Below are positions 8,640-25,506 of a stretch of 64,000 nt of DNA, piece by piece. The notes beneath the pieces are model-generated. The model was not told the origin of the DNA and did not search any database. It saw nothing but the letters and a program-made list of their open reading frames with translations. Location: assembly GCF_030384885.1 (NCBI RefSeq), contig NZ_CP128613.1. One strand, 5' to 3'. The first letter of the stretch is position 1; every line of letters begins with the position of its first letter. This stretch comes from Escherichia coli (GTDB lineage Bacteria > Pseudomonadota > Gammaproteobacteria > Enterobacterales > Enterobacteriaceae). The position numbers were made by a program, and so were the translations under genes.

Positions 8640-8900
8640 GCTCGAACAGCAGGCAATTGCCAATATAATAATCTGGCACAAGGGTGAAAAACGCGCACCG
8701 CATAAACCGTTGTTATTGCTTACAGATTAGCCGGATGCCTTAATAGACATCCGCGCCTTTTCGATTATGGCTCGGAAATCTACGAACCTCTGCACAGTTT
8801 ACTGGAACGTTTTGGACCACAGCGTTCACAGTACCGACCTGATATGCCGTTCTGGCGATTATAAGGCGACGGATTCTGGCAAATAGACGATGATAATATG
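8640..8900 (+). pseudogene. Degraded fragment paralogous to the N-terminal domain of the HNH-nuclease gene at 19855-20730
   Basis: Frame-shifted translation gives NIIIWHKGEKRAPHKPLLLL and LFDYGSEIYEPLHSLLERFGPQRSQYRPDMPFWRL, matching NITIWRKGEQRAPHKPLLLL...RLFNYGSEIYEPLLDLLERYGPQRRDQRPDMPFWRL of the 20227-20775 ORF; stops and frameshifts present. Confidence 0.6.
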
Positions 8901-9128
8901 CTTAATGATGTTCAAAGAAATTAGGCCATCATTATATTATTGCTTGCATTTTCTTTCATTCCCAAAAGCACCCGCCATTAATCCCAGGCGCATTATGCAA
9001 AGGAAAATGATTAGGTAAACAATAAGATTTATAATCAGGAAAGGCGACTCGCAATAAAACGCAAAGTCGCCTTAACATTGGTAAAATATGCCCTTTACTA
9101 CTCCTGTATCATGAACGGCTCATCACAT

Positions 9129-12100
9129 TTAAAGCTGACGTTGATCCAGACTGCTATATATTGCCTTTATTTCATTTTTTACGCTTTCGCCACGGTACAC
9201 CAAAGACGTATCGTATCGTTGATACTTATCTTCCCGTGCAGCACTGAACCAGTTAAAAGATCCGACACACAGCAGTTCTTCATCCTCAATTACAATTTTG
9301 CTGTGGACACGATTAACCAATTTCGTAGCGATACCCATCTTATTGAGCTTTTCAACAGCATCATTCAGCAGATGTTTTTTCTCCTGACGCTTATCATCAT
9401 CGACATGCGCTATATTGCAGTTTTTATCCGTCACCACAGTAATATCAATGCCCCGGGAACGGGCCAAAGCCATTGATGCCAGAAATCCCGTTTGCTCCAT
9501 TTTTTGCCAGGATAACCAAGGGGAAATAATCGTTATTTTCTTTTGAGCTCCGGCAAGAGTCTTGTTCAAAAATTCATCATGCGGCTCCACGCCATGCAGC
9601 GTTGAAATTTGTGTATGTGCGGAAATTAAATCCTGTCGTTTATGAAACTCAAATTGCAACGCATTATTATCTGAAGAAAAGAGATATTTTGCCAATAACC
9701 CTCGCGGCGAAAATGCGGGCTGCATCTCGATAAGGTCCATATCGCCAAATACCAGAAAACTATCTTTAGCGCGTGAGACAGCAACATTGAGGATACTGCT
9801 GTTGCTATCAAGAAACCTGCCATCTTCATGTTTTGAGTAGACTGGAGAAAAGAGAACAATCGCCCTTTCCGCCCCCTGCAAGGAGTGCACAGTCCCCACT
9901 GTCAGTGAACCCTCCTCGTCTTTGCCATTAATTTCCAGCTTACGCAATGACGTTTTGATAGCATTAACCTGCGCCGAAAATGGCGTCACAACACCAACAA
10001 CTTTGTACAGTGGTTCCCCGTAATGGCGCTCTATATCATCCTTATGTGCCACCAGCCATGCTGCTATTGTTTCAGCTTCAAGAGGGTTATAACGGCTCCC
10101 CCCATTTGGCTTCATGCCTCTACCATCAATATGTAAATATCCCATTGCGGGGAAAATCGTCCCTTTTTCTATCCCTCTTTTAGGCTGCAACTTACCGTGA
10201 TAGCAAAGTGAGTTACAGTAGCCGATGATGTTATTGAAACAGCGACGATGCTCATACAGATACATTCCGCGCTCGAACTTGGGATCATACTGGTAGTGAG
10301 AGTTAAACTGGGCTACCTGCATTACGCTGCCAGATGCTGCACTTTTTCCAGACCCACACACGTGAGTATATGTATTTATTAACTCTTCCTGAGTGCCACC
10401 AGAAATAATATTCTCCTCAAGCATATTGCCCATATCAGTGACGGGTAGACAATTCCAGATTGGAGCTATTTGCTCCGTATCGCCAATCACCAGCGCTTTC
10501 TTCGCCAATGCAAAGGAAGCTGCAGCAACCTCCGGGAGTACCTGCCCGGCTTCATCGACAATCAGTAAATCAGCAAAGTTATATAAATAATTATTATCCG
10601 ATGTTCTATCGCCACCAAAAGATTTTCTTCTGTTCATATGGTAAGGCAACATGTAGCAGGTCATCACCACACAAGGAGTAAGTTTCATTCTTCTTAGCCA
10701 ACGAGCCTCGGCGATAGTTATCCCGGTAATTCCTTTTTCTTTTTGCAAATTATCTATAGCTGCCATATCAATCAGCCAACGCCCCTCCCAATAATGGGTC
10801 GCTACCAAGAACGCTGGAAAACGAATCTGAGTATCGGCAAGTTCATCCGCTCCTGAAAGATTCAATTCATCGTCACCTCTGTAACCCAAAGCATAAGTCA
10901 ACTCACGCCATTGTTTTGCAGCTTCTATTTCGCGTCGGGCTATATCCTTCGCATAGTTGATGTTCTGTTGGCACTCATCCTGCTCCTTTTGCGTTTTAGC
11001 AATCAAACTATCAATAAATTCATCAATATCTTCGGGATAATTTCCCTGGAACGATGTCATTCTTGTGCCAAACGTAGAGTCCAGGAAGAGGTTAATCTGG
11101 TAATGGCGTTTAGTACGAACAGCAGGAAGCCATGACAAAACCGCATACACTAGCGACTCATCAGCACGGTATTGCTGCCACTGCTTTTTACCTCTGGTTA
11201 AAAGTGAAATTTCATTGCCAATATTGAGAAGACGTGTATTTTCGTCCTGAAGATACTGGTCGAGATTCTCACTGATGGCTCGCTGTTCATGGCGGATATC
11301 ATTAAGCCTGCGCCATGCGGGTTCGATTTGCTGAAGTTGAATAAACTGTGAAGTTAAACGTTCATGCAAAAGCGTCACTACATGCTCTGGTGAATTGCAC
11401 TCTCCAGCTCCAAACGCCACCTCCGCTTTTTCAAGGTAAAATGCCCGGGCTTTTTCCAGATATTCCTGGGATTCAACGTGGTTAAAAAAATCTTCAGTCT
11501 GGTATTTCTTCGCAGCCTCAACCTGACGGCTTTTAGACGGAAAATAAGCGCCATAGCTTATTACCTCCGGCAACCAACGACCAGCCATTACGCCAAAACC
11601 AGTAGAGAAATCTTTTCCAAAGGCTTCAATAATATTGGTGACGGCCTGATTGTTAGTTGATGTGGCAATAATTACAGGAGGTTCAGCTTGATTAAGTGCG
11701 GCTCTAGTCCATTCGGTGGCGATAATAGAAAGCACCAGCGTAGTTTTACCCGTTCCCGGAGGACCGTTAACAGCGAGCATATCCCCCTGCTGTTGAGTCA
11801 GATAATGGCTCAGGGCATCGCGCTGCGCCACTGCCAGCGGAAACTTATCGCCGGAATGCCCCAGACGTTCGCAGAACATAGCATTCTTAGCGAGAAGTGG
11901 CTCTAGTGGAACCATTTCATTTGAGGCAAAACGCGTTAATAGAGGAACCTTAACCTGGCTCATCAGCAGATGGTCATACAAAGGCAGGATATGAACACTG
12001 GCCCCTACATGCTGGCTAGCTTTAACAATATAACCGTATCCAGCCCGTTCGTATGGCTCAGATGTAGCGACCCAATTTCCAGCGACGTTTCTTAAAAGGT

Positions 12101-12644
12101 TATCTGACTGTTGAAGATAATTTTGCCAATGCTGACGATACCTGGCATGGCGTTCCGCTTTCTCTTCGTCAGTTTCTTCGTAATGTTCTGGTTGACCTTC
12201 ATTAATGGTGGCTGTGTTATGCGTAGTTTTGTATTTGTCATATTGCACCAACTCACCAATAGAAAAATGACCGGAAGGGAGAGGTTCAAGCAGATCGCGG
12301 GGAATAGTGGCTGAAGCGGCAGGAAACAAAAAACCTTCCCTATTAAGAAGAGCGGAGGTAACCAGTGGCGTAATAATTGCGGGTGCACCTGCCGTTTGCT
12401 CTTTGCCATGCTTTACAATGCGGTTCCATACCTGGGGCCGTAACACGACTTCAACGTTTTTTACAGACTCCCCTTCACCGTCAAAAAATGCCCGAATAGT
12501 TTCGTCATCCAACTGCCCTGCGCTGATATTTATCCACCGAATGAATGATTCTGTATCTTTACGTGAAAACGTTCCTTTGCCAGATTCGGCGTCAGCTAAG
12601 GAGTTGCGCCAGTATGAAGTGAATCCCAATGTATTGCTGTCCAT
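9129..12644 (-). CDS. Large helicase-nuclease fusion: N-terminal unknown region, SF1 Upf1/DNA2-like helicase, C-terminal PLD (HKD) nuclease; type II Mokosh-like defence candidate
   Basis: 1171-aa ORF, ATG at 12644. Walker [13 protein letters not shown], Walker [10 protein letters not shown], helicase motif [18 protein letters not shown]-terminal HKD motif [19 protein letters not shown]. Confidence 0.85.
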
Positions 12645-12837
12645 TTCTCATTCCGTGACATAATAGAAATCATTGATTTCATTGATGTAAATATTACTTA
12701 TGATTAAACATTGTCCACGATGCGAGCGCGATCGCAATAAATATTGTGCCTGGAGGATGGATTAGATTTTCTGAAAGAGCTAAATCCTTAATAGATAAAC
12801 GCGTACATACTTGGTTCGGTATTCTTAAGGGATTTAA

Positions 12838-12961
12838 TATGGATTGAACCAGGTTGACGTTAGTTGAAAAAAACAGTGGAAAAGATTTGTGTGGCGCGGA
12901 TTTCAGGCATAAAAAAAGACCTCAGTTGAGGTCTATTTACATACTTTTGGTGCGAAGGCCG
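12838..12961. repeat. Direct repeat copy 1 (island-distal att-like site): leuX 3' flank plus 14 nt of tRNA 3' end
   Basis: 12894-12953 is a 60-bp perfect copy of 22361-22420; about 55 bp upstream shows roughly 85 percent similarity; ends in TGGTGCGAAGGCCG, matching the leuX 3' end with a 1-nt deletion. Confidence 0.8.
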
Positions 12962-13077
12962 CACCGCGATTCCAGACTCAACAATATGAAATCAATGGAC
13001 TTTTAAAAATGCGAAGTTACTTTGTATACTCACATGTATACTCAGTACCATTTCTTAAGAAATCAATTCATTCAATA

Positions 13078-13875
13078 CTACTCATCATCGTCTTCCACTG
13101 GTTCCAGCACATCAAGCGCAACTCTCACCATAGCGATAGAACCAATACGAATGAAAGCATCTTCTCCATCTTCGTCGGTTATCATAAAACGAACCGTGGT
13201 TTCAGGCTCGCAATCCAGCGCGTCAAAAAAAGCATTCAACTGGCCGATATCATCCGTCTCTTCGTTTTGCGGCGCATCTGGCTCAACACTCAGTGGAATC
13301 ACTGGTCCGCCGTTTACCAGCGTGATATGGACATTAAAATAATCGTCTTCGTAGGCATCATCCTCTTCGTCAACGATTGGCCGCAGACCATCAGAAAGGA
13401 ACTGATGAAATACCACTTCACGCATATTTAACGCATAACGATACTCGGAAGAATCAAAAACGAAGAAGCGTTCTATGTTTGGAGTGTTTTTTTCCTGAAA
13501 ATAATAATAAAACCTCCGCTTATCCACTGCTGAAATGGGCAACAGCAAATAGTCCCGCTGCCCCTGTAGCCAAAGTTTTACGGTCCAGAGACCGCTATCC
13601 ATTTCAATGCCGCTTGTGGCTATAGCCTCAAGATCTTCATCAGTTTTACGACGCTTTTTGCGGAAGTCATTTATCAACCGATCGCTTTCCGGGAACACTA
13701 CGTTTAGAGGCTTATCCAGAGCATTACATATTGCCTGTGCGAGCCCCAGCTTTGCAGCAACCTTCCCGGTTTCGATACGCTGAATTTGTTGCTGGCTGGT
13801 GCCGACCATAAACGCCAGCTCGCGCTGGGTGATAGATAGCTGGGTACGGAGCTGTTTGATGTTGTTCTGTAACAT
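13078..13875 (-). CDS. XRE-family HTH domain fused to an acidic C-terminal domain of unknown function
   Basis: N-terminal helix-turn-helix LSITQRELAFMVGTSQQQIQRIETGK; about 200-aa C-terminal region ending VEDDDE; preferred start ATG 13875 with GAAGGA RBS (alternative 13884). Confidence 0.7.
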   Translation of the reverse strand: MLQNNIKQLRTQLSITQRELAFMVGTSQQQIQRIETGKVAAKLGLAQAICNALDKPLNVVFPESDRLINDFRKKRRKTDEDLEAIATSGIEMDSGLWTVKLWLQGQRDYLLLPISAVDKRRFYYYFQEKNTPNIERFFVFDSSEYRYALNMREVVFHQFLSDGLRPIVDEEDDAYEDDYFNVHITLVNGGPVIPLSVEPDAPQNEETDDIGQLNAFFDALDCEPETTVRFMITDEDGEDAFIRIGSIAMVRVALDVLEPVEDDDE

Positions 13876-13989
13876 GGCATCCATCCTTCAGAAGGAGTAG
13901 AAAGTGCCATTAAAACACAAAATTGAGTATAAACACATAATCGTGTTTATACTCACTAATCAACACCCTTGAACGAAAAGAAAATCTCT

Positions 13990-14265
13990 TCATCGTTCTT
14001 CTCTAGTATGCCAGAGATCGACTATATAAATGTCATTGTCACGAAGTTCGTAGTGAACCTCATGGTCATCAAATAACACTTTTCGGACTTCCCGAGGTTC
14101 ATACCGAGTCTGCTGTACGCCAATTGCCGGATGTGCTGTAAGACCAGCACAACCAGTAATCAGGCGATCCAAAACGTCATCGGCGTGCTGGCGGCTATAC
14201 TGAAGGGCGAAACGGTAGATACGCTCAAGGTCATCCTGAGCTTTAAGCGTCCAGTAAATTTCCAT
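13990..14265 (-). CDS. ParE/RelE-superfamily toxin
   Basis: 91 aa, C-terminal IYIVDLWHTREER typical of ParE; starts 3 nt after the upstream RHH gene stop. Confidence 0.75.
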   Translation of the reverse strand: MEIYWTLKAQDDLERIYRFALQYSRQHADDVLDRLITGCAGLTAHPAIGVQQTRYEPREVRKVLFDDHEVHYELRDNDIYIVDLWHTREER

Positions 14266-14268
14266 TAA

Positions 14269-14517
14269 TCAGGATTTCTTTAAGCGATTAGCAAAATCCA
14301 CCATGTCCGAGTGGCTCACCACGCGACCGGCATCCACATCCGCAAGACCGGCCTGGATGCTCTGGTGACGCCGTTCTCTTTCGGCCAGCATACTGGTCAA
14401 CGCTTCCTTAATAATCCAGCTCTTAGAACGATCTAACTCAATTGCCAGATTCTCAACAGCAGCGGCCAATTCAATAGGTATCTGTGCGCTGATGGTTTGT
14501 TTAGTAAGCGAACCCAT
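14269..14517 (-). CDS. Ribbon-helix-helix (ParD/CopG-like) antitoxin
   Basis: Small ORF directly upstream of the ParE-like gene; RHH-like N-terminus; start at 14517 (GAGGT RBS) preferred over the ORF-track start 14541. Confidence 0.65.
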   Translation of the reverse strand: MGSLTKQTISAQIPIELAAAVENLAIELDRSKSWIIKEALTSMLAERERRHQSIQAGLADVDAGRVVSHSDMVDFANRLKKS

Positions 14518-14592
14518 AGGGATTACCTCGTTTAATAACATTTAATAACTCCTATTAATATTAGCATAAAGGTGCTTATAAAAACATCAATC

Positions 14593-15426
14593 TCATTTCG
14601 CAGGTAACATCCCCGGAAAGTGCTTCGCCACGATATCATTCATCTTCTCCACCAGATCCAGGCGTTTGAAAGTGATATGCCCACTGCCCTTCTGAAAGTA
14701 GCGAATAGTGAACAACTCATCTTCGAAAATCTGCTGATGCGGATTATCGCGCACAAAATCCATAAACCGGATGGAGACATCATGCCGGTTATCAGGAATG
14801 GTCTTTCCATCCAGCAGGTAGAACATCCGTTCCAGATCGGCAAGCTGATCTCTCCGCCAGCCCCAGTTCAGGCTGTAGCCCCATCTGTCATGCTTCACCA
14901 GATTGTTAACGATAATCTTCTTACCGAAATAACAGGGATTATTGGTTTTGTAATCCCAGCTCAATCCCTTAAATACATTGATAATCCCACGTTCGAAAAC
15001 GTCCTGCTTATTGTGGTGGAGTTGTTCAAAGGTACTCAGGATGTTGGCTTCGCTAATCGCCGGGAGATCGCCCTCCTCCAGGTTCTTTGCCCACTGACTG
15101 CGGGCTTCGGCATCCATCAAGGTCAACATCCCGGACTTCAGCATGAGATCGCGCCAGATGCTGCGATCGATATTGCGGGTGATCACCGGCATGGCTTTAT
15201 CCACCGGCTGCACCAGCCAGCAGTCGAAGGAATGGCCCTGACGCATCGCCCAATGCTCCGCCACATCACCACCGATGCTGGAGGTTAGCCGTGAGATATC
15301 ATCAAGCTTATGGATCAGGATTTCTATCAGACTCAACGCAGCATCACGACCCGTCACGATACGCTCAACACTGGTCGAGCAAATTAGCTCGTTATGATCG
15401 GTTAAGACTTCAGCTTCTGTTTGCAT
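14593..15426 (-). CDS. Conserved hypothetical protein of the type commonly encoded downstream of cbtA-family toxin genes (possibly DUF4942-like)
   Basis: 277 aa from ATG 15426 (ORF-track TTG start at 15450); no motif I can assign; position after CbtA-like toxin. Confidence 0.6.
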   Translation of the reverse strand: MQTEAEVLTDHNELICSTSVERIVTGRDAALSLIEILIHKLDDISRLTSSIGGDVAEHWAMRQGHSFDCWLVQPVDKAMPVITRNIDRSIWRDLMLKSGMLTLMDAEARSQWAKNLEEGDLPAISEANILSTFEQLHHNKQDVFERGIINVFKGLSWDYKTNNPCYFGKKIIVNNLVKHDRWGYSLNWGWRRDQLADLERMFYLLDGKTIPDNRHDVSIRFMDFVRDNPHQQIFEDELFTIRYFQKGSGHITFKRLDLVEKMNDIVAKHFPGMLPAK

Positions 15427-15540
15427 AATCTTTTGTCCGTATAAAAGCAAATGCGCCAGCCATGAACAGCAGGCGCATTATGCAGGGAGTTATGAGGGAA
15501 GTAATTTTGGCGATGTAAATCGGGAAGGAGACTCGCAGAT

Positions 15541-15882
15541 TCACCGTGCCGTGGTGTTATGGCAGCGACGCAGCAGACCTGTAGCCTGCCGCGCCCGCAA
15601 AATATCGACCGCACGAAGATAAGGCGTCTGTTCCCGCCAGCTAAATCCTTTCCTGTCGATACGGATCAATTCGTACTTCTCCACCAGAAAATTGATGGCA
15701 TCAACCAGAGTGATCCCGGCGTCTATGTGTTCCTGAATCACCTTTTCATTGTTGAATGGTGTGTCATTAAGGTTCAGTCCGTAGTGCTGCTCCAGCAGGC
15801 GGGCCAGTAATGTTTGCCAGACCACGACGGGCGACAGATATGACGTCGTCGCCCGCAGCGTCGTTGCAGGAATAATTTTCAT
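15541..15882 (-). CDS. CbtA/YeeV/YkfI-family toxin
   Basis: 113 aa, [60 protein letters not shown] resembles YeeV/YkfI/YpjF. Confidence 0.8.
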
Positions 15883-15912
15883 AACGATGTTCCGTATTAA
15901 GGAGGTTAAAAC

Positions 15913-16248
15913 TCAGCGTTGAGTGGGATAAATAGCGATATAGACGTAACCACAGGAACCCAGCGTATCGGCTTCGCAGGTTAGTCCTTTGGCGTATAGC
16001 GTGACGGTACGTTGTTGGCAGGGGGAGAGTTCACCGTCAGCCAGTTTCAGCTCCAGTTGTTTCATCAACACCGGAAAAGCCTGGTCGATATGCAGCAGAT
16101 CCGGGGAGCTGAATTTCCCGGTAATTGCGGCCCGATCAGCCAGGTAATGCAGGTTATGTCTTTCCTGTACCAGTCGAGCAGTGAAGCGTGGTGTTACGGT
16201 ACAGGGAAGCCCCCATTCTTGTTGCATGACCTTGTCCTTTTGCAGCAT
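15913..16248 (-). CDS. CbeA/YeeU/YafW-family antitoxin
   Basis: 111 aa, WGLPCTVTPRFTARLVQERHNLHYLADRAAI...TVTLYAKGLTCEADTLGSCGYVYIAIYP resembles YeeU/YfjZ; directly upstream of the toxin. Confidence 0.8.
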   Translation of the reverse strand: MLQKDKVMQQEWGLPCTVTPRFTARLVQERHNLHYLADRAAITGKFSSPDLLHIDQAFPVLMKQLELKLADGELSPCQQRTVTLYAKGLTCEADTLGSCGYVYIAIYPTQR

Positions 16249-16360
16249 TACAGCCAGCCCCGTTCGGCAAAAGAGAGGACATCCCCCGCCCCAATAATGA
16301 AATGATCCAGCACCCTCACTTTCACCAAATCCAGTGTCTTAACAATATTCGTTGTAATAA

Positions 16361-16909
16361 GTCTGTCGGCCCGACTGGGTTCCCTATGAGGTTGTCACGC
16401 ACACCACAGAATTCCTGCGCGAAGGCATCAAACGGGAGAAATTAAGCGACGCACAAATCCGCGAACTGGAAGAACAAGGCATAGATCCCAATACGCTGGA
16501 GTTTGATGGTAAGGCGCTGGATGAGGCGATCTACAACAAAGACACCAACCGCTATATCCTGCGTAACCTGATGGAAAATGGCCTGAAAGATCGGGACGGC
16601 CAGTTGCCTGGTAAAACCATCATTTTCGCCCGTAACCACAAACACGCGCTGCTGTTGAATGAATTGTTCGACGATATGTACCCGGAAGGGATTGATGCTG
16701 GCGTTGATTTTAAAGATCGCACGCAGGCGGCGTTTGTTGTACCAAAAGAAGATATTGCTGCGCAGAAATACGACCTCTCTATTAATCGTTATAAAGAAGT
16801 GGTGTATCAGGCTGAGGAGTATGAAGATCCGAAAGTGATACTGAAGCGGTTAAAAGATCTGGAAAATGAGATTCTGGCGGATCTGAATGAGCTGGAGGGA
16901 ATGCTGTGA
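16361..16909 (+). pseudogene. 5'-truncated remnant of the R-M gene that precedes hsdS (hsdM-like C-terminus)
   Basis: In-frame coding sequence from 16361 with no start until ATG 16571; C-terminal KYDLSINRYKE motif; stop overlaps hsdS start (GTGA at 16906-16909). Confidence 0.5.
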
Positions 16910-18090
16910 GTTGGCCGTTAGGAAAAGTTTCCGATATTGCTGCTGTTATATCCGGTTTTGCTTTTAAAAGCGAATGGTTTGGTACAGGAGACGCAAAGGT
17001 TATCCGAATTGGCGATCTTAAGAACGGAAAAATCGATCTTAGTGATGCAATGATCTTTGATCATAAAACTAATAAAGTTCGCGAACAATTTAGAATCAAA
17101 AGCGGCGATATTTTAATGGCTCTTTCTGGCGCAACTGTTGGGAAGATCGCAGTTGCTGATGCTGAAGCTGAAGGTGCATATCTTAATCAACGAGTAGCAG
17201 TGATTCGAGGGCGAAATCATGAAAATGCAGAATATTTAAAATACGTATTTTCAGGACACCCTCTCCAAAAACTACTCCTAAATGCAGGTGGTGCGGCACA
17301 GCCAAATCTTAGCTCTAAAGACTTGGCAGAGATGGAAATACCTATTCCCCCTCTTACCGAACAAAAAAGAATCTCAACCATACTTGATAAAGTAAATGGC
17401 ATACGTCAAAAGCGCGAGCAAGCCATAAAGCTGGCTGATAATTTTTTGCATACCATTTTTCATGAGATGTTTGGCGATCCTGTTAAAAACCCGAAGGGAT
17501 GGGATGTCGCCTCTTTATTAGAATATGGTTCATTCAAAAATGGAATGAATTTTTCAAAAGGTGAATTGGGATCTGCTTTGAAGTGCCTAGGAGTTGGTGA
17601 TTTCAAATCACTGGCAACGATTACCTGTATGGACAATATCGGTGAAATTGAATTAAATACTCTTCCTTCGGATGATTATCTTTTGAAAGATGGTGATATT
17701 GTCTTTGTCCGTTCTAATGGTAATAAAGCCTTGGTCGGAAGATGTCTTACTATTTATCCAAACAAAGAGAAAGTCACATTTAGTGGGTTTTGCATTCGAT
17801 ACAGAATAAAAAATCCTGCAATCACGCCAGAATATCTCAACTTCCTTTTCCGTACACCGTCAATGAAACAGCAAATGTTGAGCGGGGGCCAAGGGGCTAA
17901 TATTCAGAATATTAGCCAAGGTACCTTATCTGCACTCAGGATACCTGTACCTCCATTGGATAAACAACTTGCTTTTGCCAGATTGGTTGATTTCCATGCA
18001 TCTATTGTGAAAAAACAATATGATAAAATGGCTGAATCCGAAAAACTCTTCAATGCCTTGACTGGTGATTTTTTCACATTTAATGAGTGA
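16906..18090 (+). CDS. hsdS: Type I restriction-modification specificity subunit HsdS
   Basis: 394 aa, two target-recognition-like halves with conserved spacer motifs (NQRVAVIRG, LPPLTEQKRI, IPVPPLDKQ); GTG start with RBS GGAGGGA. Confidence 0.85.
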   Translation: MSWPLGKVSDIAAVISGFAFKSEWFGTGDAKVIRIGDLKNGKIDLSDAMIFDHKTNKVREQFRIKSGDILMALSGATVGKIAVADAEAEGAYLNQRVAVIRGRNHENAEYLKYVFSGHPLQKLLLNAGGAAQPNLSSKDLAEMEIPIPPLTEQKRISTILDKVNGIRQKREQAIKLADNFLHTIFHEMFGDPVKNPKGWDVASLLEYGSFKNGMNFSKGELGSALKCLGVGDFKSLATITCMDNIGEIELNTLPSDDYLLKDGDIVFVRSNGNKALVGRCLTIYPNKEKVTFSGFCIRYRIKNPAITPEYLNFLFRTPSMKQQMLSGGQGANIQNISQGTLSALRIPVPPLDKQLAFARLVDFHASIVKKQYDKMAESEKLFNALTGDFFTFNE

Positions 18091-18145
18091 TGGTTTATAG
18101 GATAACTCATTCATTACAAAATTTATTAAATACATAGAGGGGCAA

Positions 18146-18691
18146 ATGGGTACATATATCTCAGATAAAACAGAAACATGTTTTGATGAATATTCTTTAA
18201 TCGAAAAAGTCGGGGATGGCTATAAGATTAGTGTGTACTCATTTAAGCTTCATACAGGAAATCCTTACCAGCCACATATATCAGAAAGTTATAGTGGTGA
18301 TATTTTTATTAGCTATTTGTACTATGGAAATGATTCTTATTACGAGCGCAGACGTCAGGAATACAGAAAATATTTATCATTAAAAGAAATCCACCTTGCT
18401 ATTCTAAAGATGTTTCCAGATGAGCGAAGAATTGCGATAGGTATAAAAAAAGAAAATTACAGTACCGTAAAAATAACTTATGCGGCAGCGGATGAAGTAT
18501 ATCTTCTTGATATTAAAAATAAAGAGACATTATTGTTAGATAATATATTATGTCTATATGATGTTATTTATAAGCATGAAAGCAACATTAATAAATTGGA
18601 AGGCGAGTTAGCAAGTAGTAAAAAAGAACTCCAAAGTATGAAGATAGATATAAAAGAAAAATGTAAATCTATTCTTGATATTGTTGATTAG
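18146..18691 (+). CDS. Hypothetical protein, AT-rich, predicted C-terminal coiled coil
   Basis: 181-aa ORF, ATG 18146 with RBS AGAGGGG; markedly lower GC than neighbours; no recognisable motif. Confidence 0.55.
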   Translation: MGTYISDKTETCFDEYSLIEKVGDGYKISVYSFKLHTGNPYQPHISESYSGDIFISYLYYGNDSYYERRRQEYRKYLSLKEIHLAILKMFPDERRIAIGIKKENYSTVKITYAAADEVYLLDIKNKETLLLDNILCLYDVIYKHESNINKLEGELASSKKELQSMKIDIKEKCKSILDIVD

Positions 18692-18811
18692 TAAAAACAA
18701 CCCCAGTGGCAATAATTCATTGATATGGAACTCTTCTAATGGCTGAAATATTTTCTTTGCGTTATGATGTTTTGTTCTACAGCCTTGAGATTTCACGTCA
18801 GGAAAGTAACC

Positions 18812-19777
18812 ATGCCTTTAGATTTAAGTAATACTTTAGTTATTGGCATTAGCGCAACTGCGCTTTTTGACATGAGCGAATCGGATCGCATGTTTCGGGA
18901 AACCTATGCGACCGATCCGGATAGTGCCATTGAGAAGTATCGTGCTTATATGCTGGAACACGAAAACCAGCCTTTACAGCCCGGAACAGGCTACCCCTTA
19001 GTCAAAGCGTTGCTGGGGCTGAACCGGTACCGCCAGCCGGATGATAAATCGCCGTTGGTTGAGGTTGTTGTGATGTCGCGCAACAGTCCTGATACCGGTA
19101 TCCGCGTTTTGAATACCATTCGCCATGACAAACTCGATATTACACGTTCAGCTTTTACCGCAGGTGAAACCGTTGCCGATTACCTTGATGCCTTTGATGT
19201 GGATCTGTTTTTAACAACCAACGTTGAAGATGCGCAAAAGGTGATTGATTCCCGATTCTGCGCCGCTGCAATCCTGAAAGATCCGCCTTCTGACGCATCT
19301 GATATCCCGGAAGGGCAAGTGCGCATTGCTTTTGACGGCGACGCGGTACTTTTTTCCGATCAAAGCGAACTGGTTTATAAGACCCAAGGAATGGCTGCCT
19401 TTCATGCTCAGGAAGACGCGCAGCAGGATATCCCTATGGAAGAGGGGCCTTATGCCACTTTGCTAAAAAAAATAGCCAAGCTTCAGGAACGATTGCCGAC
19501 CCGCGTTGAGTATTCTCCTGTTCGTATTGCGCTGGTGACAGCCCGAAATAGCCCTTCGGAAATGCGCGTTATTAAAACGCTAAGAAGCTGGGGGGTATAT
19601 GTCGATGAAGCTTTTTTTCTTGGCGGTGTAGAGAAAACAAAAGTTCTGAAGGCGTTTAGGCCACACATTTTCTTTGACGATCAGGATGTGCATTTGATCG
19701 CGGCTGCAAAGGTAGTACCTTCTGGTAAAGTACCTTATGCCAGTAACTCCGAACTGGCAGAACGTGAAGCATCGTAA
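18812..19777 (+). CDS. HAD-superfamily 5'-nucleotidase-like protein
   Basis: 321 aa from MPLDLSNTLVIGISATALFD; HAD-like motifs FDGDAVLF (DxDxV), VTARNSPSE, FFDDQDVH; RBS AGGAAAG. Confidence 0.6.
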   Translation: MPLDLSNTLVIGISATALFDMSESDRMFRETYATDPDSAIEKYRAYMLEHENQPLQPGTGYPLVKALLGLNRYRQPDDKSPLVEVVVMSRNSPDTGIRVLNTIRHDKLDITRSAFTAGETVADYLDAFDVDLFLTTNVEDAQKVIDSRFCAAAILKDPPSDASDIPEGQVRIAFDGDAVLFSDQSELVYKTQGMAAFHAQEDAQQDIPMEEGPYATLLKKIAKLQERLPTRVEYSPVRIALVTARNSPSEMRVIKTLRSWGVYVDEAFFLGGVEKTKVLKAFRPHIFFDDQDVHLIAAAKVVPSGKVPYASNSELAEREAS

Positions 19778-19854
19778 TTATCGCTAACAAACCATTTAGT
19801 CATTAAGGCTGGATGGTTTGTATACCACACGCAAAATAACTGCCCTCCCCCAGA

Positions 19855-20730
19855 TCAATGCTCTCCTCTGAACACCTCTTTTCTGTGCCATTCCACAAAC
19901 CGCTCGCCAGGATAATTTTCTTTAACCGGTGGCAACGCAATCGCCTTTCCTGCAAAATCCCAGAACAGCCGCTGTACCACCCCACCGCCATTTACCGCGC
20001 CGGAAACCACCACACGCATATTTTCATCCAAACCAATCGAACCACGATCAAACGCTTTATGATGGATGGCGCACAATGCCAGGCCATTAGGTACTTCACA
20101 AGGGCCATGGTGCTGCTTCCATCTGATATGAGCGGCTTCCAGAGCAATCGGCGCATTGTCGTGGCGCATGTTAAAGCCGCAGATAGCGCACTGATAATTG
20201 TAAGCACGTAGCACCATCTGACGGAACTACGGATCGCGTTGACGGAGAGAGGTGCGAATATCAAAACCCATCTCGTCAGCTATCTCTTCCTGAATACTGG
20301 CCGGGAAATGCGCCTCCAGGAGCTGCTGCGCCAGCGTATCAATTAACCTGTGATTTTTTGCCACCAAAGCAAAATTATCGGCATCAAATCCACCAGCAAC
20401 ATTATATTCAATGAGTTCACGTCGGGGCGGCTGGCGGCTACCACTGGTTGAGCACAGTTCCGCGTTATGTAGTTCCCAGAAGCCATCGCCCTTCAGACGC
20501 CAGAACGGCATGTCCGGGCGCTGGTCACGGCGCTGCGGTCCATAACGTTCCAGTAGATCCAACAGGGGCTCGTAGATTTCAGAACCATAGTTAAACAGGC
20601 GACCATGACCCTGCCGATAGTGTGAGAGAACGTACAGCAGCAATAATGGCTTATGTGGCGCACGTTGTTCGCCTTTGCGCCAGATGGTGATATTTGATAT
20701 CGCTTGTTTTAGGGTTTTGTCAGAGGTCAT
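19855..20730 (-). pseudogene. HNH endonuclease-family gene with unknown N-terminal domain, interrupted by one in-frame amber (TAG) codon
   Basis: ORFs 20227-20775 and 19855-20217 are in the same frame, separated only by TAG at 20229-20227 plus 3 sense codons; C-terminal part has HNH motifs CAICGF...EAAHIRWKQHHGP...NGLALCAIHHKAFD. Confidence 0.7.
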
Positions 20731-20861
20731 TGCGTTGGAGAATCCATGAGCACATATTTGCGATGATGCTCGCAACTATATGTACATTCAAGGCATTATT
20801 GCAGACATCCTTTTTCTCTGGCGGTTCTGTACCTGGCAGATAGAATTCTGATAACAACGGT

Positions 20862-20908
20862 AAAAAATACAGCGACCAACCAGTCCTAAGCGGGCTGGTT
20901 GGTCTTTT
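20862..20908. terminator. Hairpin terminator downstream of intB (bidirectional appearance)
   Basis: Stem GACCAACCAG / CTGGTTGGTC with T-run on + (TTTT 20905-20908) and A-run upstream (T-run on minus). Confidence 0.5.
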
Positions 20909-20945
20909 AAATTTAAACATCAGCCGAGGAATAACGGCATTCAAC

Positions 20946-22214
20946 TCACTCGCCATTCCCCCGGTTGATCTTCGCATAGTCAAACGGCGTAATCGCTCTT
21001 TCCCGATTGGCATCCAGAAAATCAGCCCACCACTGTAACATCAGCTTGCGCTCATCCAGATGTTCCGCTTTATGGATATACGCCGCCCTCACCGAATTGC
21101 GTTCCATATGGCTCATCTGGCGCTCCACCGCATCCTTCGACCATAGCCCTGACTCAATTAACGAACTACAGGCCATTGTACGGAAGCCGTGGCCGCAAAC
21201 TTCAACCTTAGTGTCATAACCCATCACCCGTAGCGCACTGTTTACCGTGTTCTCGCTCATGGGCTTACGCGGATCGTGATCGCCAATAAAAATCAGCTCA
21301 TGTTCGCCACAGAACTGTTTTATCTGCTTCAGGATCGCCAGCGCCTGCTTTGAAAGCGGCACCAGATGAGGTGTGCGCATCTTTGAACCTCGCTGAGAAT
21401 GTTTCACGCCGGGAATCGGTTCTCGCTCAGGCGGGATGGTCCACATTGATGTTTCAAAATCGATCTCTGACCAGCGAGCAAAACGCAGCTCACTGGATCG
21501 AATAAAAATAAGCAGAGTAAGTTCGGTTGCCCAGCGGGTTAGCGGCCTGCCGGTATAGCCGTCTATTTTCTCAAGCAACTCAGGGATGCGCTTTAACTCC
21601 AGCGCCGGACGATGCTGTCGATTACTGGAAGCAACCGCCCCTGCCATCTCTTGCGCCGGATTGTAATCAATTAACCCGCTTTGCACTGCATAACGCATGA
21701 TGGCCGTGGTGCGCTGTTGAAGGCGGGAAGCCACCTCAAGACGTCCGGATTTCTCCACGGCTTTAATAGGAATTAACAGATCGCGGGTGCCCAGTTCAGC
21801 AATATTGTGGGAACCAATTGCCGGGAAGATATTGTCCTCCAGGCTCTTTTTTACACGATTAGCATGATCTTCCGACCATTTTTGGTTGGTTACGAGCCAC
21901 TCTTTGGCAACCTTCTCGAAAGTAATAATCTCTTTCGCCTGCTCTTCTTTCACAGCACGCTTATGCTCACGAGGATCGATACCAGCAGCTACCAGCTTTC
22001 TGGCCTCTTCCCTTTTCTTCCTGGCATCCGCCAGCGAAACATCCGGGTAAACGCCGAACGCCATCAAATGTTGTTTACCACCAAAACGGAAACGAAATCG
22101 CCAATACTTTGAACCGCCAGGTTTTACAAGTAAGGACATGCCGTCGCCGTCAACAAGTGAATACTCTTTCTCCTCAGGTTTCGCAGAGCGAACTTTAGTA
22201 TCCGTTAGGGCCAT
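20946..22214 (-). CDS. intB: P4-type tyrosine integrase (IntB-like)
   Basis: 422 aa from MALTDTKVRSAKPEEKEY with RBS GGAAGGAAG; C-terminal tyrosine-recombinase catalytic region; adjacent to tRNA-Leu. Confidence 0.9.
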   Translation of the reverse strand: MALTDTKVRSAKPEEKEYSLVDGDGMSLLVKPGGSKYWRFRFRFGGKQHLMAFGVYPDVSLADARKKREEARKLVAAGIDPREHKRAVKEEQAKEIITFEKVAKEWLVTNQKWSEDHANRVKKSLEDNIFPAIGSHNIAELGTRDLLIPIKAVEKSGRLEVASRLQQRTTAIMRYAVQSGLIDYNPAQEMAGAVASSNRQHRPALELKRIPELLEKIDGYTGRPLTRWATELTLLIFIRSSELRFARWSEIDFETSMWTIPPEREPIPGVKHSQRGSKMRTPHLVPLSKQALAILKQIKQFCGEHELIFIGDHDPRKPMSENTVNSALRVMGYDTKVEVCGHGFRTMACSSLIESGLWSKDAVERQMSHMERNSVRAAYIHKAEHLDERKLMLQWWADFLDANRERAITPFDYAKINRGNGE

Positions 22215-22304
22215 AATGGTCTTCCTTCCATTGGTATCTCGTGAGTATACAAGCAATATCGAATCGGCAAATATACTCATTAGTATACTCACAAGCCTGT
22301 TGAT

Positions 22305-22420
22305 GTGGGTTGAGTCAGGTTGACTTCAGTTGAGGGGAAAAGCTGGAAAAGCCTTGTGTAGCGCGGATTTCAGGCATAAAAAAAGACCTCAGTTGAGGTC
22401 TATTTACATACTTTTGGTGC
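22305..22420. repeat. Direct repeat copy 2 (integrase-proximal), covering the leuX terminator hairpin and tRNA 3' end
   Basis: 22361-22420 identical to 12894-12953; contains GACCTCAGTTGAGGTC hairpin plus T-run on the minus strand (leuX terminator). Confidence 0.8.
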
Positions 22421-22499
22421 CGAAGGCCGGACTCGAACCGGCACGTATTTCTACGGTTGATTTTGAATCAACTGCGTCTACCGATTTCGCCACTTCGGC
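22415..22499 (-). tRNA. leuX: tRNA-Leu (CAA anticodon), leuX
   Basis: Reverse complement reads GCCGAAGTGGCGAAATCGGTAGACGCAGTTGATTCAAAATCAACCGTAGAAATACGTGCCGGTTCGAGTCCGGCCTTCGGCACCA, 85 nt with encoded CCA. Confidence 0.95.
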
Positions 22500-22694
22500 A
22501 CTGAAGAGGTATGCGGAAAACGTTGTGGATTATACCTGTCACGCGCCACCATGCAAGCGCCAGCTTGCTCCCACCTCGCTAAGTGCTGAAATTTTCAGCA
22601 TTACATACAGCGATGTGCAACCTTTGTCACACTCCAGGCACCACGCCCTACCATGCTCTACACTTCCCAGACAACACCAGAGAAGGACAAAAAT

Positions 22695-23714
22695 ATGTCG
22701 ATGATAAAAAGCTATGCCGCAAAAGAGGCTGGCGGCAAACTGGAAGTTTATGAGTACGATCCCGGTGAACTGAAACCACAAGATGTCGAAGTGCAGGTGG
22801 ATTACTGCGGGATCTGCCATTCCGATCTGTCGATGATCGACAACGAATGGGGATTTTCACAATATCCGCTGGTTGCCGGGCATGAGGTGATTGGTCGCGT
22901 GGTGGCGCTCGGGAGCGCCGCGCAGGATAAAGGTTTGCAGGTCGGTCAGCGTGTCGGGATTGGCTGGACGGCGCGTAGCTGCGGGCATTGCGACGCCTGT
23001 ATTAGCGGTAATCAGATCAACTGCGAGCAAGGTGCGGTGCCAACAATTATGAATCGCGGCGGTTTTGCCGAGAAGTTGCGTGCAGACTGGCAATGGGTGA
23101 TCCCACTGCCGGAAAATATCGATATCGAGTCCGCCGGGCCGCTGTTGTGCGGCGGTATCACGGTCTTTAAACCACTGTTGATGCACCATATCACCGCCAC
23201 CAGTCGCGTTGGGGTAATTGGTATTGGCGGGCTGGGGCATATCGCTATAAAACTTCTGCACGCAATGGGATGCGAGGTGACGGCCTTTAGTTCGAATCCG
23301 GCGAAAGAGCAGGAGGTGCTGGCGATGGGTGCCGATAAAGTGGTGAATAGCCGCGATCCGCAGGCTCTGAAAGCACTGGCGGGGCAGTTCGATCTCATTA
23401 TCAATACCGTGAACGTCAGCCTCGACTGGCAGCCCTATTTTGAGGCGCTGACGTATGGCGGTAATTTCCACACCGTCGGTGCGGTTCTCACGCCGTTGCC
23501 GGTTCCGGCCTTTACGCTGATTGCGGGCGATCGCAGTGTCTCTGGCTCTGCTACCGGCACGCCTTATGAGTTGCGTAAGCTGATGCGCTTTGCCGCCCGC
23601 AGCAAGGTTGCGCCGACCACCGAACAGTTCCCAATGTCGAAAATTAACGACGCCATTAAGCATGTACGCGATGGTAAAGCGCGCTACCGAGTGGTCCTGA
23701 AAGCCGACTTCTGA
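22695..23714 (+). CDS. ahr: NADPH-dependent aldehyde reductase Ahr (zinc alcohol dehydrogenase family)
   Basis: 339 aa from [14 protein letters not shown]; zinc-ADH motifs ([15 protein letters not shown]). Confidence 0.95.
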
Positions 23715-23843
23715 TCCCTTTGCCGGGTGCCTGTCGCCCGGCTTTTAAATCTCTTTGGAAGGCGTCTCGCAATCTGCTGAATTTAGCGGTGAAGAGTGCG
23801 CAGCCGTTGCCTATACTCCAGGCAGGAAACTGGAGGATATCTC

Positions 23844-25346: not shown

Positions 25347-25364
25347 GTCAGGTGCGATTTGTCT

Positions 25365-25404
25365 TTGCCTGATGCGACGCTGGCGCGCCTTATCATGCCT
25401 ACAC
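25365..25404. repeat. REP element
   Basis: GCCTGATGCGACGCTGGCGCGCCTTATCATGCCTACA, typical REP palindromic unit. Confidence 0.7.
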
Positions 25405-25506
25405 TACTGCAATATATTGAATTTTCATGATTTTTCAGGCATGAACGAAGCACACTTTGCTAACAATAATAAAGGGAGCTTTCGCTCCCTTTATTCGTTC
25501 ATCAGG

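Follow-up and report, generated by a model that had tools for sequence, protein, structure and literature searches.

An integrase-bearing genomic island beside leuX of Escherichia coli whose attachment arm carries its own tRNA terminator

In the 64,000-nucleotide stretch of Escherichia coli DNA analysed here (the window), positions 12948-22429 very probably represent a genomic island of the P4-integrase family that carries a terminator-bearing att arm and has decayed by two deletions from a 21.3-kb parent. The initial annotation had placed a leuX-integrated island with a P4-type integrase at this locus, and this is confirmed: the int ORF adjoins tRNA-Leu(CAA), the only tRNA gene found in the window by ARAGORN, with Rfam in agreement. 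The int ORF mechanically spans 20946-22292, and the annotated start in an identical relative corresponds to window position 22214, giving 422 aa. The protein is collinear with the Int of P4, which uses the same target gene (57% identity over 97%; RSSELR, HGFR and AAY motifs present), and is 81% identical to IntB of KpLE2, the K-12 element with the same tRNA target. Features are listed in Table 1.

Table 1. Features of the leuX island and its flanks, in window coordinates.
Feature	Position	Strand	Basis or remark
yjhR, full-length 1171-aa helicase-nuclease	9129-12644	-	RefSeq "helicase YjhR"; PADLOC MkoC 1464 bits
Resident flank, in register with integrase-proximal arms	12834-12893		phased repeats at 12843, 12853, 12863
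Resident leuX terminator, displaced by insertion	12910-12934	-	identical to island-borne copy and to 2020CK-00188 empty-site terminator
Displaced leuX 3' fragment TGGTGC-GAAGGCCG	12948-12965 (fragment 12948-12961; one C missing)		sequence; alignment with empty site
P'-arm arm-type repeats TATACTCA x2, 12-bp period	13025-13044	+	repeat search; geometry as P4 P' arm repeats
HTH (Xre-type) regulator, 265 aa, acidic C-terminus; last gene of island	13078-13875	-	NCBIfam and PADLOC HTH; RefSeq
RelE/ParE-family toxin	13990-14265	-	RefSeq annotation
CopG/RHH antitoxin	14269-14517	-	RefSeq annotation; NCBIfam RelB-like match below curated cutoff
DUF4942 protein, yee module	14593-15426	-	RefSeq annotation
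CbtA-family toxin	15541-15882	-	RefSeq annotation of 99.99%-identical parent
YeeU-family antitoxin	15913-16248	-	RefSeq annotation of 99.99%-identical parent
Deletion scar	16378-16909	+	blastn against 21.3-kb parent; junction sequences
hsdS, type I specificity subunit, intact, orphaned	16906-18090	+	PADLOC Specificity_I E 3e-164
Hypothetical ORF, 181 aa	18146-18691	+	ORF list
5'-nucleotidase-like gene, defence candidate PDC-S08	18812-19777	+	PADLOC E 5.6e-134; RefSeq "5'-nucleotidase"
PT-DNA-binding (phosphorothioate) HNH restriction endonuclease pseudogene	19855-20730	-	RefSeq on identical sequence; PADLOC HNH, mREase_IV
int, P4-family tyrosine integrase, 422 aa, apparently intact	20946-22214	-	Pfam Arm-DNA-bind_3, Phage_int_M and Phage_integrase
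P-arm arm-type repeats TATACTCA	22242-22291		two direct (22272, 22284; 12-bp period) and one inverted (22242-22249)
Four GTTGA repeats, exact 10-bp period, P arm	22299-22333 (at 22299, 22309, 22319, 22329)		sequence
Island-borne replacement leuX terminator, 7-bp stem AGACCUCAACUGAGGUCU and U7	22377-22401	-	terminator scan; fold; compensatory changes across arms
leuX, tRNA-Leu(CAA), intact target gene	22415-22499	-	ARAGORN; Rfam tRNA 59.4 bits

A repeat search of the window recovered a direct repeat of 77 nt (12877-12953 and 22344-22420, 96% identical, with mismatches at 12885, 12886 and 12893), inside which the 60-bp perfect repeat described earlier (12894-12953 and 22361-22420) was reproduced exactly. 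A weaker block of 34 nt relates 12834-12867 to 22300-22333 at 79% identity. A 43-nt piece of the repeat has two copies in the window, which was the case in 0/100 shuffles. The tRNA share of the proximal att site is the last 15 nt of leuX (22415-22429, TGGTGCCGAAGGCCG). Copy 1 runs on as GAAGGCCG (12954-12961), so the displaced tRNA fragment is TGGTGCGAAGGCCG, beginning at 12948 and carrying one C fewer than TGGTGCCGAAGGCCG; the 14-nt tRNA end reported there is indeed present, but the deletion had been overlooked. The region 12948-12965 reads GGTGC-GAAGGCC-GCACC, a 5-bp inverted repeat flanking 7 bp. All other distal copies examined also lack this C and all tRNA copies have CC, a difference that the simple model leaves unexplained and that counts against our best explanation. 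The attR copies of intP4 GI-pheV islands show, like the displaced leuX fragment, a gap of one base that lies six bases away from the end of the tRNA (PMC11537424).

An empty leuX-yjhR junction was found in four of 5,426 complete genomes, and the comparison of leuX loci thus shows the island to be polymorphic. In one of these strains, 2020CK-00188, leuX adjoins yjhR, its chromosomal neighbour in empty-site strains, and the flank matches copy 1 without a difference as far as the tRNA fragment. The resident alleles are AT at 12885-6 and G at 12893, from which the arm beside leuX differs at 22352, 22353 and 22360 and further left. The island-borne copy is the tRNA-adjacent one (22300-22414) and the distal copy is that of the empty site; the element does carry DNA resembling the leuX flank, as had been supposed. 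The high conservation of the 50-nt leuX trailer is the one point in favour of an ordinary conserved flank without island polymorphism. This reading has virtually no probability given that both a 21.3-kb and a 9.5-kb form of the island exist and its family lies beside different left-hand neighbours, and the four empty junctions already rule it out. As for the point of exchange, the distal junctions of SA186 and A30 carry a different element's arm to the left of TGGTGC and the arm of the window island to the right, which places the exchange at or beside TGGTGC. The exact crossover point suggested by this comparison should be read with the qualification that such junctions could be reshaped by homologous recombination between related islands. 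Alternatively, crossover might lie beyond the terminator, some 50-65 nt downstream of leuX, the tRNA-side terminator being always chromosomal and the distal copy island-borne. Many strains with unrelated islands agree at 100% over the 50 nt that follow leuX, as if these were immobile, and the 60-bp perfect block has no internal marker in the window. We nevertheless regard this as very improbable, since in SA186 and A30 the P' arm of the island meets a different terminator type (GACGTC stem) directly at TGGTGC, where an island-borne distal terminator would predict the GACCTC type. The division between CC in tRNA copies and single C in distal copies fits an exchange on the CCA side of that base, and the P4-like spacing of the arm repeats centres on the tRNA end.

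Outward from int, the proposed att site begins with three arm-type repeats (TATACTCA), one inverted and two direct, and continues with four phased GTTGA repeats, the conserved box, an intrinsic terminator and a short core common to the tRNA 3' end; beyond the core stand another two arm-type repeats. The motif TATACTCA occurs 13 times in the window, where 1.08 copies would be expected; seven of the 13 are in the island, and the inverted copy (22242-22249) lies just upstream of the int start. These repeats match the annotated P4 attP repeats in number and orientation (2+1 on the int side, two on the far side), in their 12-bp period and in distance from the core: counted from the start of TGGTGC, 124 bp against 113 bp in P4 on the P side, and 77 against 73 bp on the P' side. 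P4 likewise has short repeats phased at 10 bp between arm sites and core. The GTTGA repeats are kept in register in arms of E. coli, Citrobacter, Serratia and Enterobacter, and are candidate binding sites of an excisionase or bending protein. The arm-repeat motif co-varies with integrase lineage, which together with the P4 layout suggests that Int or AlpA may bind it. P4 differs in sharing with leuX only the 20-bp core TGGTGCCGAAGGCCGGACTC, with a full CC and no trailer homology, and its attP has no hairpin (-3.4 kcal/mol). The repeat is therefore longer than a P4-type core, as the initial annotation had stressed; the two island ends share about 135 bp, against 20 bp for P4, because the resident flank has the same module as the island arm. 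The direct repeats reported for intP4 GI-pheV islands are 19-23 bp long and consist of tRNA sequence only (PMC11537424), in contrast to the terminator-including repeat found here.

The terminator hairpin is present in both copies, as first reported: on the minus strand, AGACCTCAACTGAGGTCT stands at 22401-22384 and at 12934-12917, with seven U after it in each case. The RNA fold of the island-borne copy has an energy of -15.7 kcal/mol (z -3.1). Across arms, 97.6% of cells are paired, with double changes in two pairs and three different stems that all still pair; covariation scores 0.262, compared with 0.128 for shuffled data, and 0/500 shuffles reach the observed value. Collinearity of the arm extends over about 200 nt in eight arms with an integrase gene or integrase remnant of this clade beside them (E. 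coli AW1.7, SC406, 2014C-3061 and K-12, Citrobacter R56, Serratia, Enterobacter and L104) and in a ninth, L087, beside which no integrase was detected. Where measured, the neighbouring integrases are 77-96% identical to that of the window. The shared module comprises the hairpin with its compensatory stem changes, the U-run, the conserved box, the GTTGA repeats phased at 10 bp, and arm-type repeats arranged as in P4. The long repeat thus appears to be a terminator-carrying arm, a conserved collinear part of the att site in the eight integrase-adjoining arms examined, and not a one-off capture.

The resident flank itself (12834-12893) aligns in register with the integrase-proximal arms at a score reached by 0/2000 shuffles. 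In-register identity runs on into decayed arm repeats (21/31 against AW1.7 and Citrobacter R56, P about 1e-6), although beyond 12834 local alignment alone is not significant. The "native" flank looks like the fossil P arm of an older element, and two arm generations, the arm of the current island and a fossil at the so-called empty site, best account for the weaker upstream similarity. The initial annotation had offered tandem integration, to which this reading comes close, or, as its leading suggestion, an earlier imprecise excision, against which the eight collinear arms and their compensatory hairpin changes speak. Had a single imprecise excision in an earlier host captured the leuX flank, the repeat would be a lineage accident; recent capture, or gene conversion by the resident copy, would give the 96-100% identity of island arm and resident flank over 77 nt, and P4 has no such sequence. 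Such an origin is improbable, as the same module occurs in the same place and order beside related integrases or remnants in four genera, pairing is preserved in all three hairpin stems, and the K-12 IntB arm is identical for exactly the first 50 nt and divergent after. A single recent capture does not account for a collinear, co-varying arm across genera. A stronger contender, if still clearly the less probable one, is that the empty-site flank is truly ancestral E. coli DNA without any fossil arm, of which an ancestor of the IntB clade copied about 135-190 bp long ago. A terminator followed by GTGCCTGAAATC also stands after leuX in Serratia marcescens UMH3 with no integrase within 1.5 kb, so at least that part looks host-derived, and the non-significant alignment beyond 12834 agrees with such an origin. 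However, the phased GTTGA and arm-type repeats are element features: in several genera they lie beside integrases or their remnants, and they co-vary with integrase lineage. Neither is present in the S. marcescens flank, whereas in E. coli the empty flank carries the phased repeats and matches, in register, 21/31 positions of the arm-repeat block of AW1.7 and Citrobacter R56. We therefore favour the fossil arm.

The closest relative of the island is a 21.3-kb leuX island in E. coli 2013C-4282 (NZ_CP027579.1, approximately 2915077-2936400), which has the same insertion site, flanks, att sites and single-C displaced fragment. All shared parts, on both sides of two gaps, are 99.99-100% identical by blastn. 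The gaps measure 8,881 bp and 2,952 bp, with microhomologies GGTTCC and GTAyCCG, and reduce the core spacing from 21,300 bp to 9,467 bp. The island is small, as initially described, but it is not a compact element: it is a decayed derivative that has lost about half of its genes and 11.8 kb. The lost DNA contained the greater part of radC, hsdR and hsdM, together with alpA, a DUF932 gene, an inovirus Gp2-like gene, a GTPase gene, a WYL gene and two hypothetical genes. What is left at the scar is a 136-nt radC remnant (16248-16383) following the YeeU-family antitoxin, junction 1 (16378-16383, the GGTTCC microhomology), a 0.3-kb internal hsdR fragment, junction 2 (16678-16684) and the 3'-terminal 225 nt of hsdM. 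The scar is crossed by a chimeric ORF (16571-16909) with partial PADLOC matches to both REase_I and MTase_I. The 9.5-kb form occurs in no complete genome of the collection, so the two deletions lack independent confirmation and could in principle be assembly errors. The deleted alpA (72 aa) matches the Pfam Phage_AlpA and PHROG excisionase families and is an excisionase candidate probably needed for excision. No AlpA homologue is left in the window, and a search of viral and metagenome contigs for the attP-junction pattern gave no match. Although the integrase gene and both att sites are still present, the island is probably locked in place, with excision probably impossible without help in trans.

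By annotation the cargo is mainly defence and addiction, as had been noted, yet the greater part of the defence set is dead: both hsdR and hsdM are truncated, and translation of the PT-dependent nuclease reveals one in-frame stop. The 181-aa ORF, which falls in the kilobase where the GC of the island is lowest (0.33), gave no match in NCBIfam and PADLOC searches. KpLE2 has the same arm layout, and the first 50 nt after leuX, terminator included, are identical. We rejected the island as a KpLE2 variant, given the different arm repeat (TGGTA in KpLE2, GAGTATA here) and the unrelated cargo of KpLE2, about 38 kb. The distal boundary of KpLE2 is gone in K-12, because yjhR is truncated at its N-terminus. 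The replication and capsid-hijacking genes of P4 are absent from both the island and its parent. CP4-57/CP4-44-type elements and intP4 GI-pheV islands share with the family a P4-type integrase beside a tRNA or tmRNA gene, an AlpA-family regulator and the yee module (CbtA/YeeU, RadC, DUF932, YeeP-like GTPase) as well as frequent decay by deletion, but use different target genes. The literature lists the locus as #37 among 41 defence hotspots of E. coli, reports it to be occupied more than any other and places an arm-type integrase at one of its anchors (PMC12707154, citing PMC10121019). The window cargo there comprises type I R-M, the PT-dependent nuclease, PDC-S08 and toxin-antitoxin pairs beside a Mokosh-type yjhR, with most defence genes inactivated. 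The consulted passages of those surveys deal with gene content rather than att-site anatomy (PMC12707154, PMC10121019).

The island is therefore a real but ordinary mobile island beside leuX, with long end repeats because its family brings its own copy of the tRNA terminator. Integration would push the resident terminator 9.5 kb away and replace it, since a leuX trailer and terminator come with the int-side arm. In this way leuX would remain terminated, and int, 200 nt downstream on the same strand, may be shielded from tRNA read-through, suggesting an insulating role for the arm terminator.

The window contains a single tRNA gene, a tRNA-Leu(CAA) (leuX) on which Rfam agrees, and adjoining it on the same strand is an integrase gene, int. 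The Int protein carries arm-binding, central and catalytic domains (Pfam PF13356, PF22022 and PF00589), is collinear with the integrase of phage P4 (57% identity over 97% of its length, catalytic motifs present) and is 81% identical to IntB of KpLE2, the K-12 element at leuX; the P4-type integrase beside leuX proposed in the initial annotation is thus upheld by homology. The proposal of a leuX-integrated island that is polymorphic for presence is likewise borne out. In E. coli 2020CK-00188 leuX and its terminator are followed by ~270 bp of flank and then by yjhR; this flank matches without a difference the DNA that lies left of the distal copy of the end repeat, and the tRNA side is identical to that on the right of the copy adjoining leuX, so that the empty site is precise. 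The arm, i.e. the att-site DNA between the end of leuX and int, differs from the empty site within 22300-22360 at positions 22352, 22353 and 22360, and further to the left. It follows that the island brought the copy beside leuX, and that the distal one is displaced resident flank. Such an empty leuX-yjhR junction occurs in four of 5,426 complete E. coli genomes, a rarity that fits published descriptions of leuX as the defence hotspot with the highest occupancy in E. coli (PMC12707154, citing PMC10121019).

GC content varies between 0.33 and 0.52 over the island and between 0.50 and 0.56 to the right of leuX, and the left flank (yjhR, nan, fim) is low in GC too. In empty-site strains yjhR is the chromosomal neighbour of leuX. 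The PADLOC model MkoC (type II Mokosh defence) matches the full-length yjhR of the window end to end (1464 bits); in K-12 C600 the gene is a pseudogene with a truncated N-terminus.

Features of the leuX island and its flanks (positions in the window; strand where reported)
Feature	Position	Strand	Remarks
yjhR	9129-12644	-	full length, 1171 aa
Additional repeat block	12834-12867 and 22300-22333		34 nt, 79% identical
Phased repeats of resident flank	12843, 12853, 12863
Direct repeat, distal and leuX copies	12877-12953 and 22344-22420		77 nt, 96% identical
Perfect part of direct repeat	12894-12953 and 22361-22420		60 nt
Displaced leuX 3' fragment	12948-12961		14 nt, direct orientation
Inverted repeat of short form	12949-12965		GGTGC-GAAGGCC-GCACC
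Arm-type repeats TATACTCA, far side	13025, 13037
Xre-type HTH regulator	13078-13875		NCBIfam, PADLOC, annotation; far end of island
Palindrome TGAGTATAAACACGATTATGTGTTTATACTCA	13924-13955		32 nt, perfect
RelE/ParE toxin and CopG antitoxin	13990-14517
DUF4942 protein	14593-15426
CbtA toxin and YeeU antitoxin	15541-16248
Deletion 1	16378-16383		8,881 bp, GGTTCC microhomology
Deletion scar ORF	16571-16909		hsdR fragment fused to hsdM end; scar lies between YeeU and hsdS
Deletion 2	16678-16684		2,952 bp, GTAyCCG microhomology
hsdS	16906-18090		sole complete type I gene
ORF, 181 aa	18146-18691	+	no family match; lowest-GC kilobase of island
5'-nucleotidase-like gene	18812-19777	+	PADLOC defence candidate PDC-S08, E 5.6e-134
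Phosphorothioate-DNA-binding HNH nuclease	19855-20730		one in-frame stop
int	20946-22214	-
Arm-type repeats TATACTCA, int side	22242(-), 22272, 22284
Phased GTTGA repeats	22299-22333		four copies, exact 10-bp period
leuX, tRNA-Leu(CAA)	22415-22499	-	gene end TGGTGCCGAAGGCCG at 22415-22429

By annotation the cargo is mostly concerned with defence and addiction, as initially proposed, but the type I restriction-modification system and the HNH nuclease are, judging from their reading frames, inactive. A complete set of hsdR, hsdM and hsdS is not present, as a 0.3-kb fragment of hsdR runs directly into the final 225 nt of hsdM. The 181-aa ORF and the 5'-nucleotidase-like gene that follows it (18146-19777, both on the plus strand) may belong together as a unit of two genes. 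The palindrome lies in the gap between the RelE-like gene and the beginning of the gene for the HTH regulator, and its outer arms are the octamer that also makes up the att arm repeats; possible roles are those of an operator, of a terminator for the toxin operon, or of an arm site for Int inside the island.

The closest relative, and the parent form, is the 21.3-kb leuX island of E. coli 2013C-4282 (NZ_CP027579.1). Identity between the two is 99.99-100% over 8835-16383, 16378-16684 and 16678-26000, and again over 32500-39500. As all DNA compared is this similar except for two deletions within the island, the source of the window is near-clonal with 2013C-4282. The two deletions account for the size difference, core spacing being 21,300 bp in 2013C-4282 and 9,467 bp in the window. 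They removed most of radC, a DUF932 gene, two hypothetical genes, an inovirus Gp2-like gene, a GTPase, a WYL gene, most of hsdR and hsdM, and a 72-aa HTH gene of the AlpA family (Pfam Phage_AlpA PF05930; PHROG excisionase families). The small size of the island therefore represents decay, and not a new compact element; none of the 5,426 complete genomes of the collection has the 9.5-kb form. No AlpA homologue was found in the window by tblastn, and with alpA deleted the island is probably immobile, unless the AlpA of another genomic island acts in trans. A search with a narrow exact-match pattern for the attP junction expected on excision (arm alleles of the island, then the core, then the far or P' arm) gave no match in viral and metagenome contigs, so a free circular form is unsupported.

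The island has the integrase domains, the intact tRNA with a displaced fragment, the empty site and the arm-type repeats on both sides of the core that characterise P4-family tRNA islands, and the window lacks the cognate AlpA/Vis-family excisionase. The CP4-57, CP4-44 and GI-pheV class of intP4 islands is also among its closest relatives. P4 itself has the same target and att geometry, with a core of 20 bp only. The hallmarks of P4 satellites (alpha primase-helicase, sid, psu, delta, cos) were found neither in the ORFs of the window nor in the annotation of the parent or PHROG scans of six parent genes, and the island is therefore not a P4-like satellite. An integrative mobilizable element was likewise rejected, there being no relaxase in the window or in the parent annotation. 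KpLE2 occupies the same site and has an integrase of the same clade, but its arm diverges from that of the island after 50 nt and has another repeat motif, its cargo (fec, sgc and others) is unrelated, and its distal end has been lost along with the N-terminus of yjhR; the island has neither the IntB-type arm repeats nor the KpLE2 cargo.

The long direct repeat reported at both ends was recovered with its 60-nt perfect stretch and with weaker similarity upstream, the latter in the 34-nt block. A 43-nt piece of it occurs exactly twice in the window, and in none of 100 shuffles. Both copies contain, as had been noticed, the terminator hairpin AGACCUCAACUGAGGUCU, and on the tRNA strand a U7 run comes directly after it; starting 14 nt past the tRNA end, with a 7-bp stem, each is predicted to be an intrinsic terminator. 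In an Rfam scan of 12000-23500 only the tRNA was matched, with no known RNA family over the trailer or the repeats. The distal copy runs on into GAAGGCCG, giving the 14-nt tRNA 3' fragment TGGTGCGAAGGCCG (TGGTGC-GAAGGCCG). This fragment had been correctly identified; what had been overlooked is that it is one C short of the leuX gene end.

The att site follows the plan annotated for P4 attP, in which a 20-bp core, TGGTGCCGAAGGCCGGACTC, is accompanied on the int side by two direct arm repeats with a 12-bp period, one inverted repeat at the start of int, two direct repeats on the far side, and short GGAC-like repeats phased at 10 bp between arm sites and core. In the island the octamer, present 13 times in the window against 1.08 expected, differs from the P4 repeat. 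The arm repeats lie 124 and 77 bp from the start of TGGTGC, compared with 113 and 73 bp in P4, and between them and the core are the phased GTTGA repeats, then a conserved box, then the terminator. The P4 arm, in contrast, has no homology to the trailer and no hairpin (-3.4 versus -15.7 kcal/mol in the island). By analogy, the N-terminal domain of Int would bind the candidate octamer sites and the core would be recombined at the tRNA end, with the phased repeats perhaps used by AlpA or a bending protein. The island-borne terminator would keep leuX properly terminated, and may also shield int, which lies 200 nt farther down the same strand, from tRNA read-through.

The terminator-bearing arm is not peculiar to this island. 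K-12, BL21 and many other E. coli strains are 100% identical over the 50 nt past leuX, and the arm diverges beyond. A scan of genome contigs with the last 30 nt of leuX gave 120 loci, mostly from unrelated phyla and none from non-coli Escherichia species, with 18 usable Enterobacterales-like loci. Nine arms were aligned (E. coli AW1.7, SC406, 2014C-3061 and K-12, Citrobacter R56, Serratia bockelmannii, an Enterobacter MAG and the contigs L104 and L087); eight adjoin an integrase gene or its remnant, and none was detected at L087. The integrases are 77-96% identical to the island Int where measured (AW1.7, K-12, Citrobacter, Serratia, Enterobacter and L104). The arms are collinear over ~200 nt. 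In the order that they share, the tRNA end is followed by a 14-nt spacer, the hairpin with U7, the box RTGYCTRAAATCC, the phased TCAAC repeats, a pair of direct arm repeats, a conserved segment that includes the inverted arm repeat, and finally the ribosome-binding site and start of int. The arm-repeat motif varies by lineage (GAGTATA, GCGGGTA, TGGTA), all three copies changing in concert. The hairpin stem exists in three versions (GACCUC/GAGGUC, GACGUC/GACGUC and GUCGC/GCGGC), all of -14 to -16 kcal/mol; 97.6% of cells in the alignment pair, two pairs carry double changes, and the covariation score of 0.262 (0.128 in shuffles) was reached by none of 500 shuffles. Where P4-type elements adjoin leuX in Citrobacter werkmanii, Pantoea and Photorhabdus, integrase identity is 50-57% and the arm is that of P4, lacking a hairpin. 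In Providencia vermicola P8538 a long tandem array of the hexamer CCTATT directly follows the leuX terminator and precedes a 77%-identical integrase gene with a disrupted N-terminal part.

Williams is said to have assigned the P4 integrase subfamily, in 2002, to an asymmetric 3'-end sublocation of tRNA genes. The point of exchange at leuX can be narrowed from strains SA186 (locus L003, 13549-14020) and A30 (locus L004, 13610-14085), which carry the same island family followed by a second, decayed element, and are tandem arrays at leuX. At their distal junction the DNA to the right of TGGTGC is the far arm of the island, and that to the left is the arm of the other element, with a GACGTC-type terminator. 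Crossover beyond the terminator is thereby ruled out, and the exchange is placed at TGGTGC or immediately beside it, TGGTGC being the GCACCA end of the tRNA. The second element comprises an integrase remnant and a pair of hypothetical genes of very large size (~4.7 kb and ~2.2 kb), and in SA186 one arm of its hairpin has been lost by a 10-nt deletion between two GACGTC repeats. One C of GCC is absent from all distal copies examined (the window, SA186, A30, XJW9B277, NCTC9699 and HB-Coli0), and this form (TGGTGC-GAAGG) is constant even where the far arms beside it are not alike; CC is present in all of the tRNA copies. If it is this short form that attP carries, exchange has to occur on the CCA side of the missing base. 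An analogous one-base gap is tabulated for attR of intP4 islands at pheV (PMC11537424, Table 1). The short form contains a perfect 5-bp inverted repeat around 7 bp, GAAGGCC, but crossover within these 7 bp was rejected for now, as it predicts a single C in the tRNA and CC in the displaced copy, the reverse of the observed pattern. In NCTC9699 the unit GGTGCGAA occurs three times in tandem, and in HB-Coli0 the core is partly duplicated.

How the repeat came to be so long can be explained in several ways. The initial annotation suggested an earlier imprecise excision or tandem integration; a single imprecise excision does not account for the same terminator-bearing arm, with its covarying hairpin, beside related integrases across genera. 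The resident flank itself has the terminator, the box and the phased repeats in common with the arms, with a score reached by none of 2000 shuffles. These similarities suggest that the "empty" flank of E. coli is the arm of an ancient element that has lost its integrase, and the 135-bp repeat two generations of arms, a reading that we regard as reasonably probable. Left of 12834, local alignments of the flank with five arms, that of the island among them, did not reach significance. Decayed arm repeats there are supported only by the comparison in the register of the multiple alignment, in which 21 of 31 positions agree with the arm-repeat block of AW1.7 and Citrobacter R56 (binomial P ~1e-6), a value that hinges on how MAFFT sets the register. 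Alternatively, host flank was copied by an ancestral element, in which case the resident flank would be no fossil arm. Serratia marcescens UMH3 has leuX with a terminator and GTGCCTGAAATC, with no phased repeats and no integrase within 1.5 kb.

A fossil arm in the resident flank can be joined with the other observations into a broader proposal, to which we attach about even chances. Islands of the IntB clade at leuX, unlike P4, would hold the tRNA trailer and terminator as an integral, co-evolving part of the att site, so that each insertion swaps the leuX terminator for an island-borne one that shields int. There would be no virgin leuX site in E. coli, the rare "empty" junctions being a fossil arm and the long repeat two arm generations, and the displaced core one base shorter, as also at pheV, would mark exchange at the CCA end.

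The island is a decayed example of a well-known kind at a well-known hotspot, its att-site anatomy is a modest and unsurprising refinement, and current understanding of how such islands work is unchanged. For annotation, island boundaries can be set to the single base, and the type I system and the phosphorothioate-dependent nuclease are better called non-functional. Direct-repeat length at leuX should be read with caution, since it would reflect the stacked arms of successive elements and not the recombination core. The arm repeats, phased repeats, replacement terminator and CCA-end crossover together provide a testable att-site map for the clade of integrases occupying this hotspot, the one most often filled among the defence hotspots of E. 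coli.
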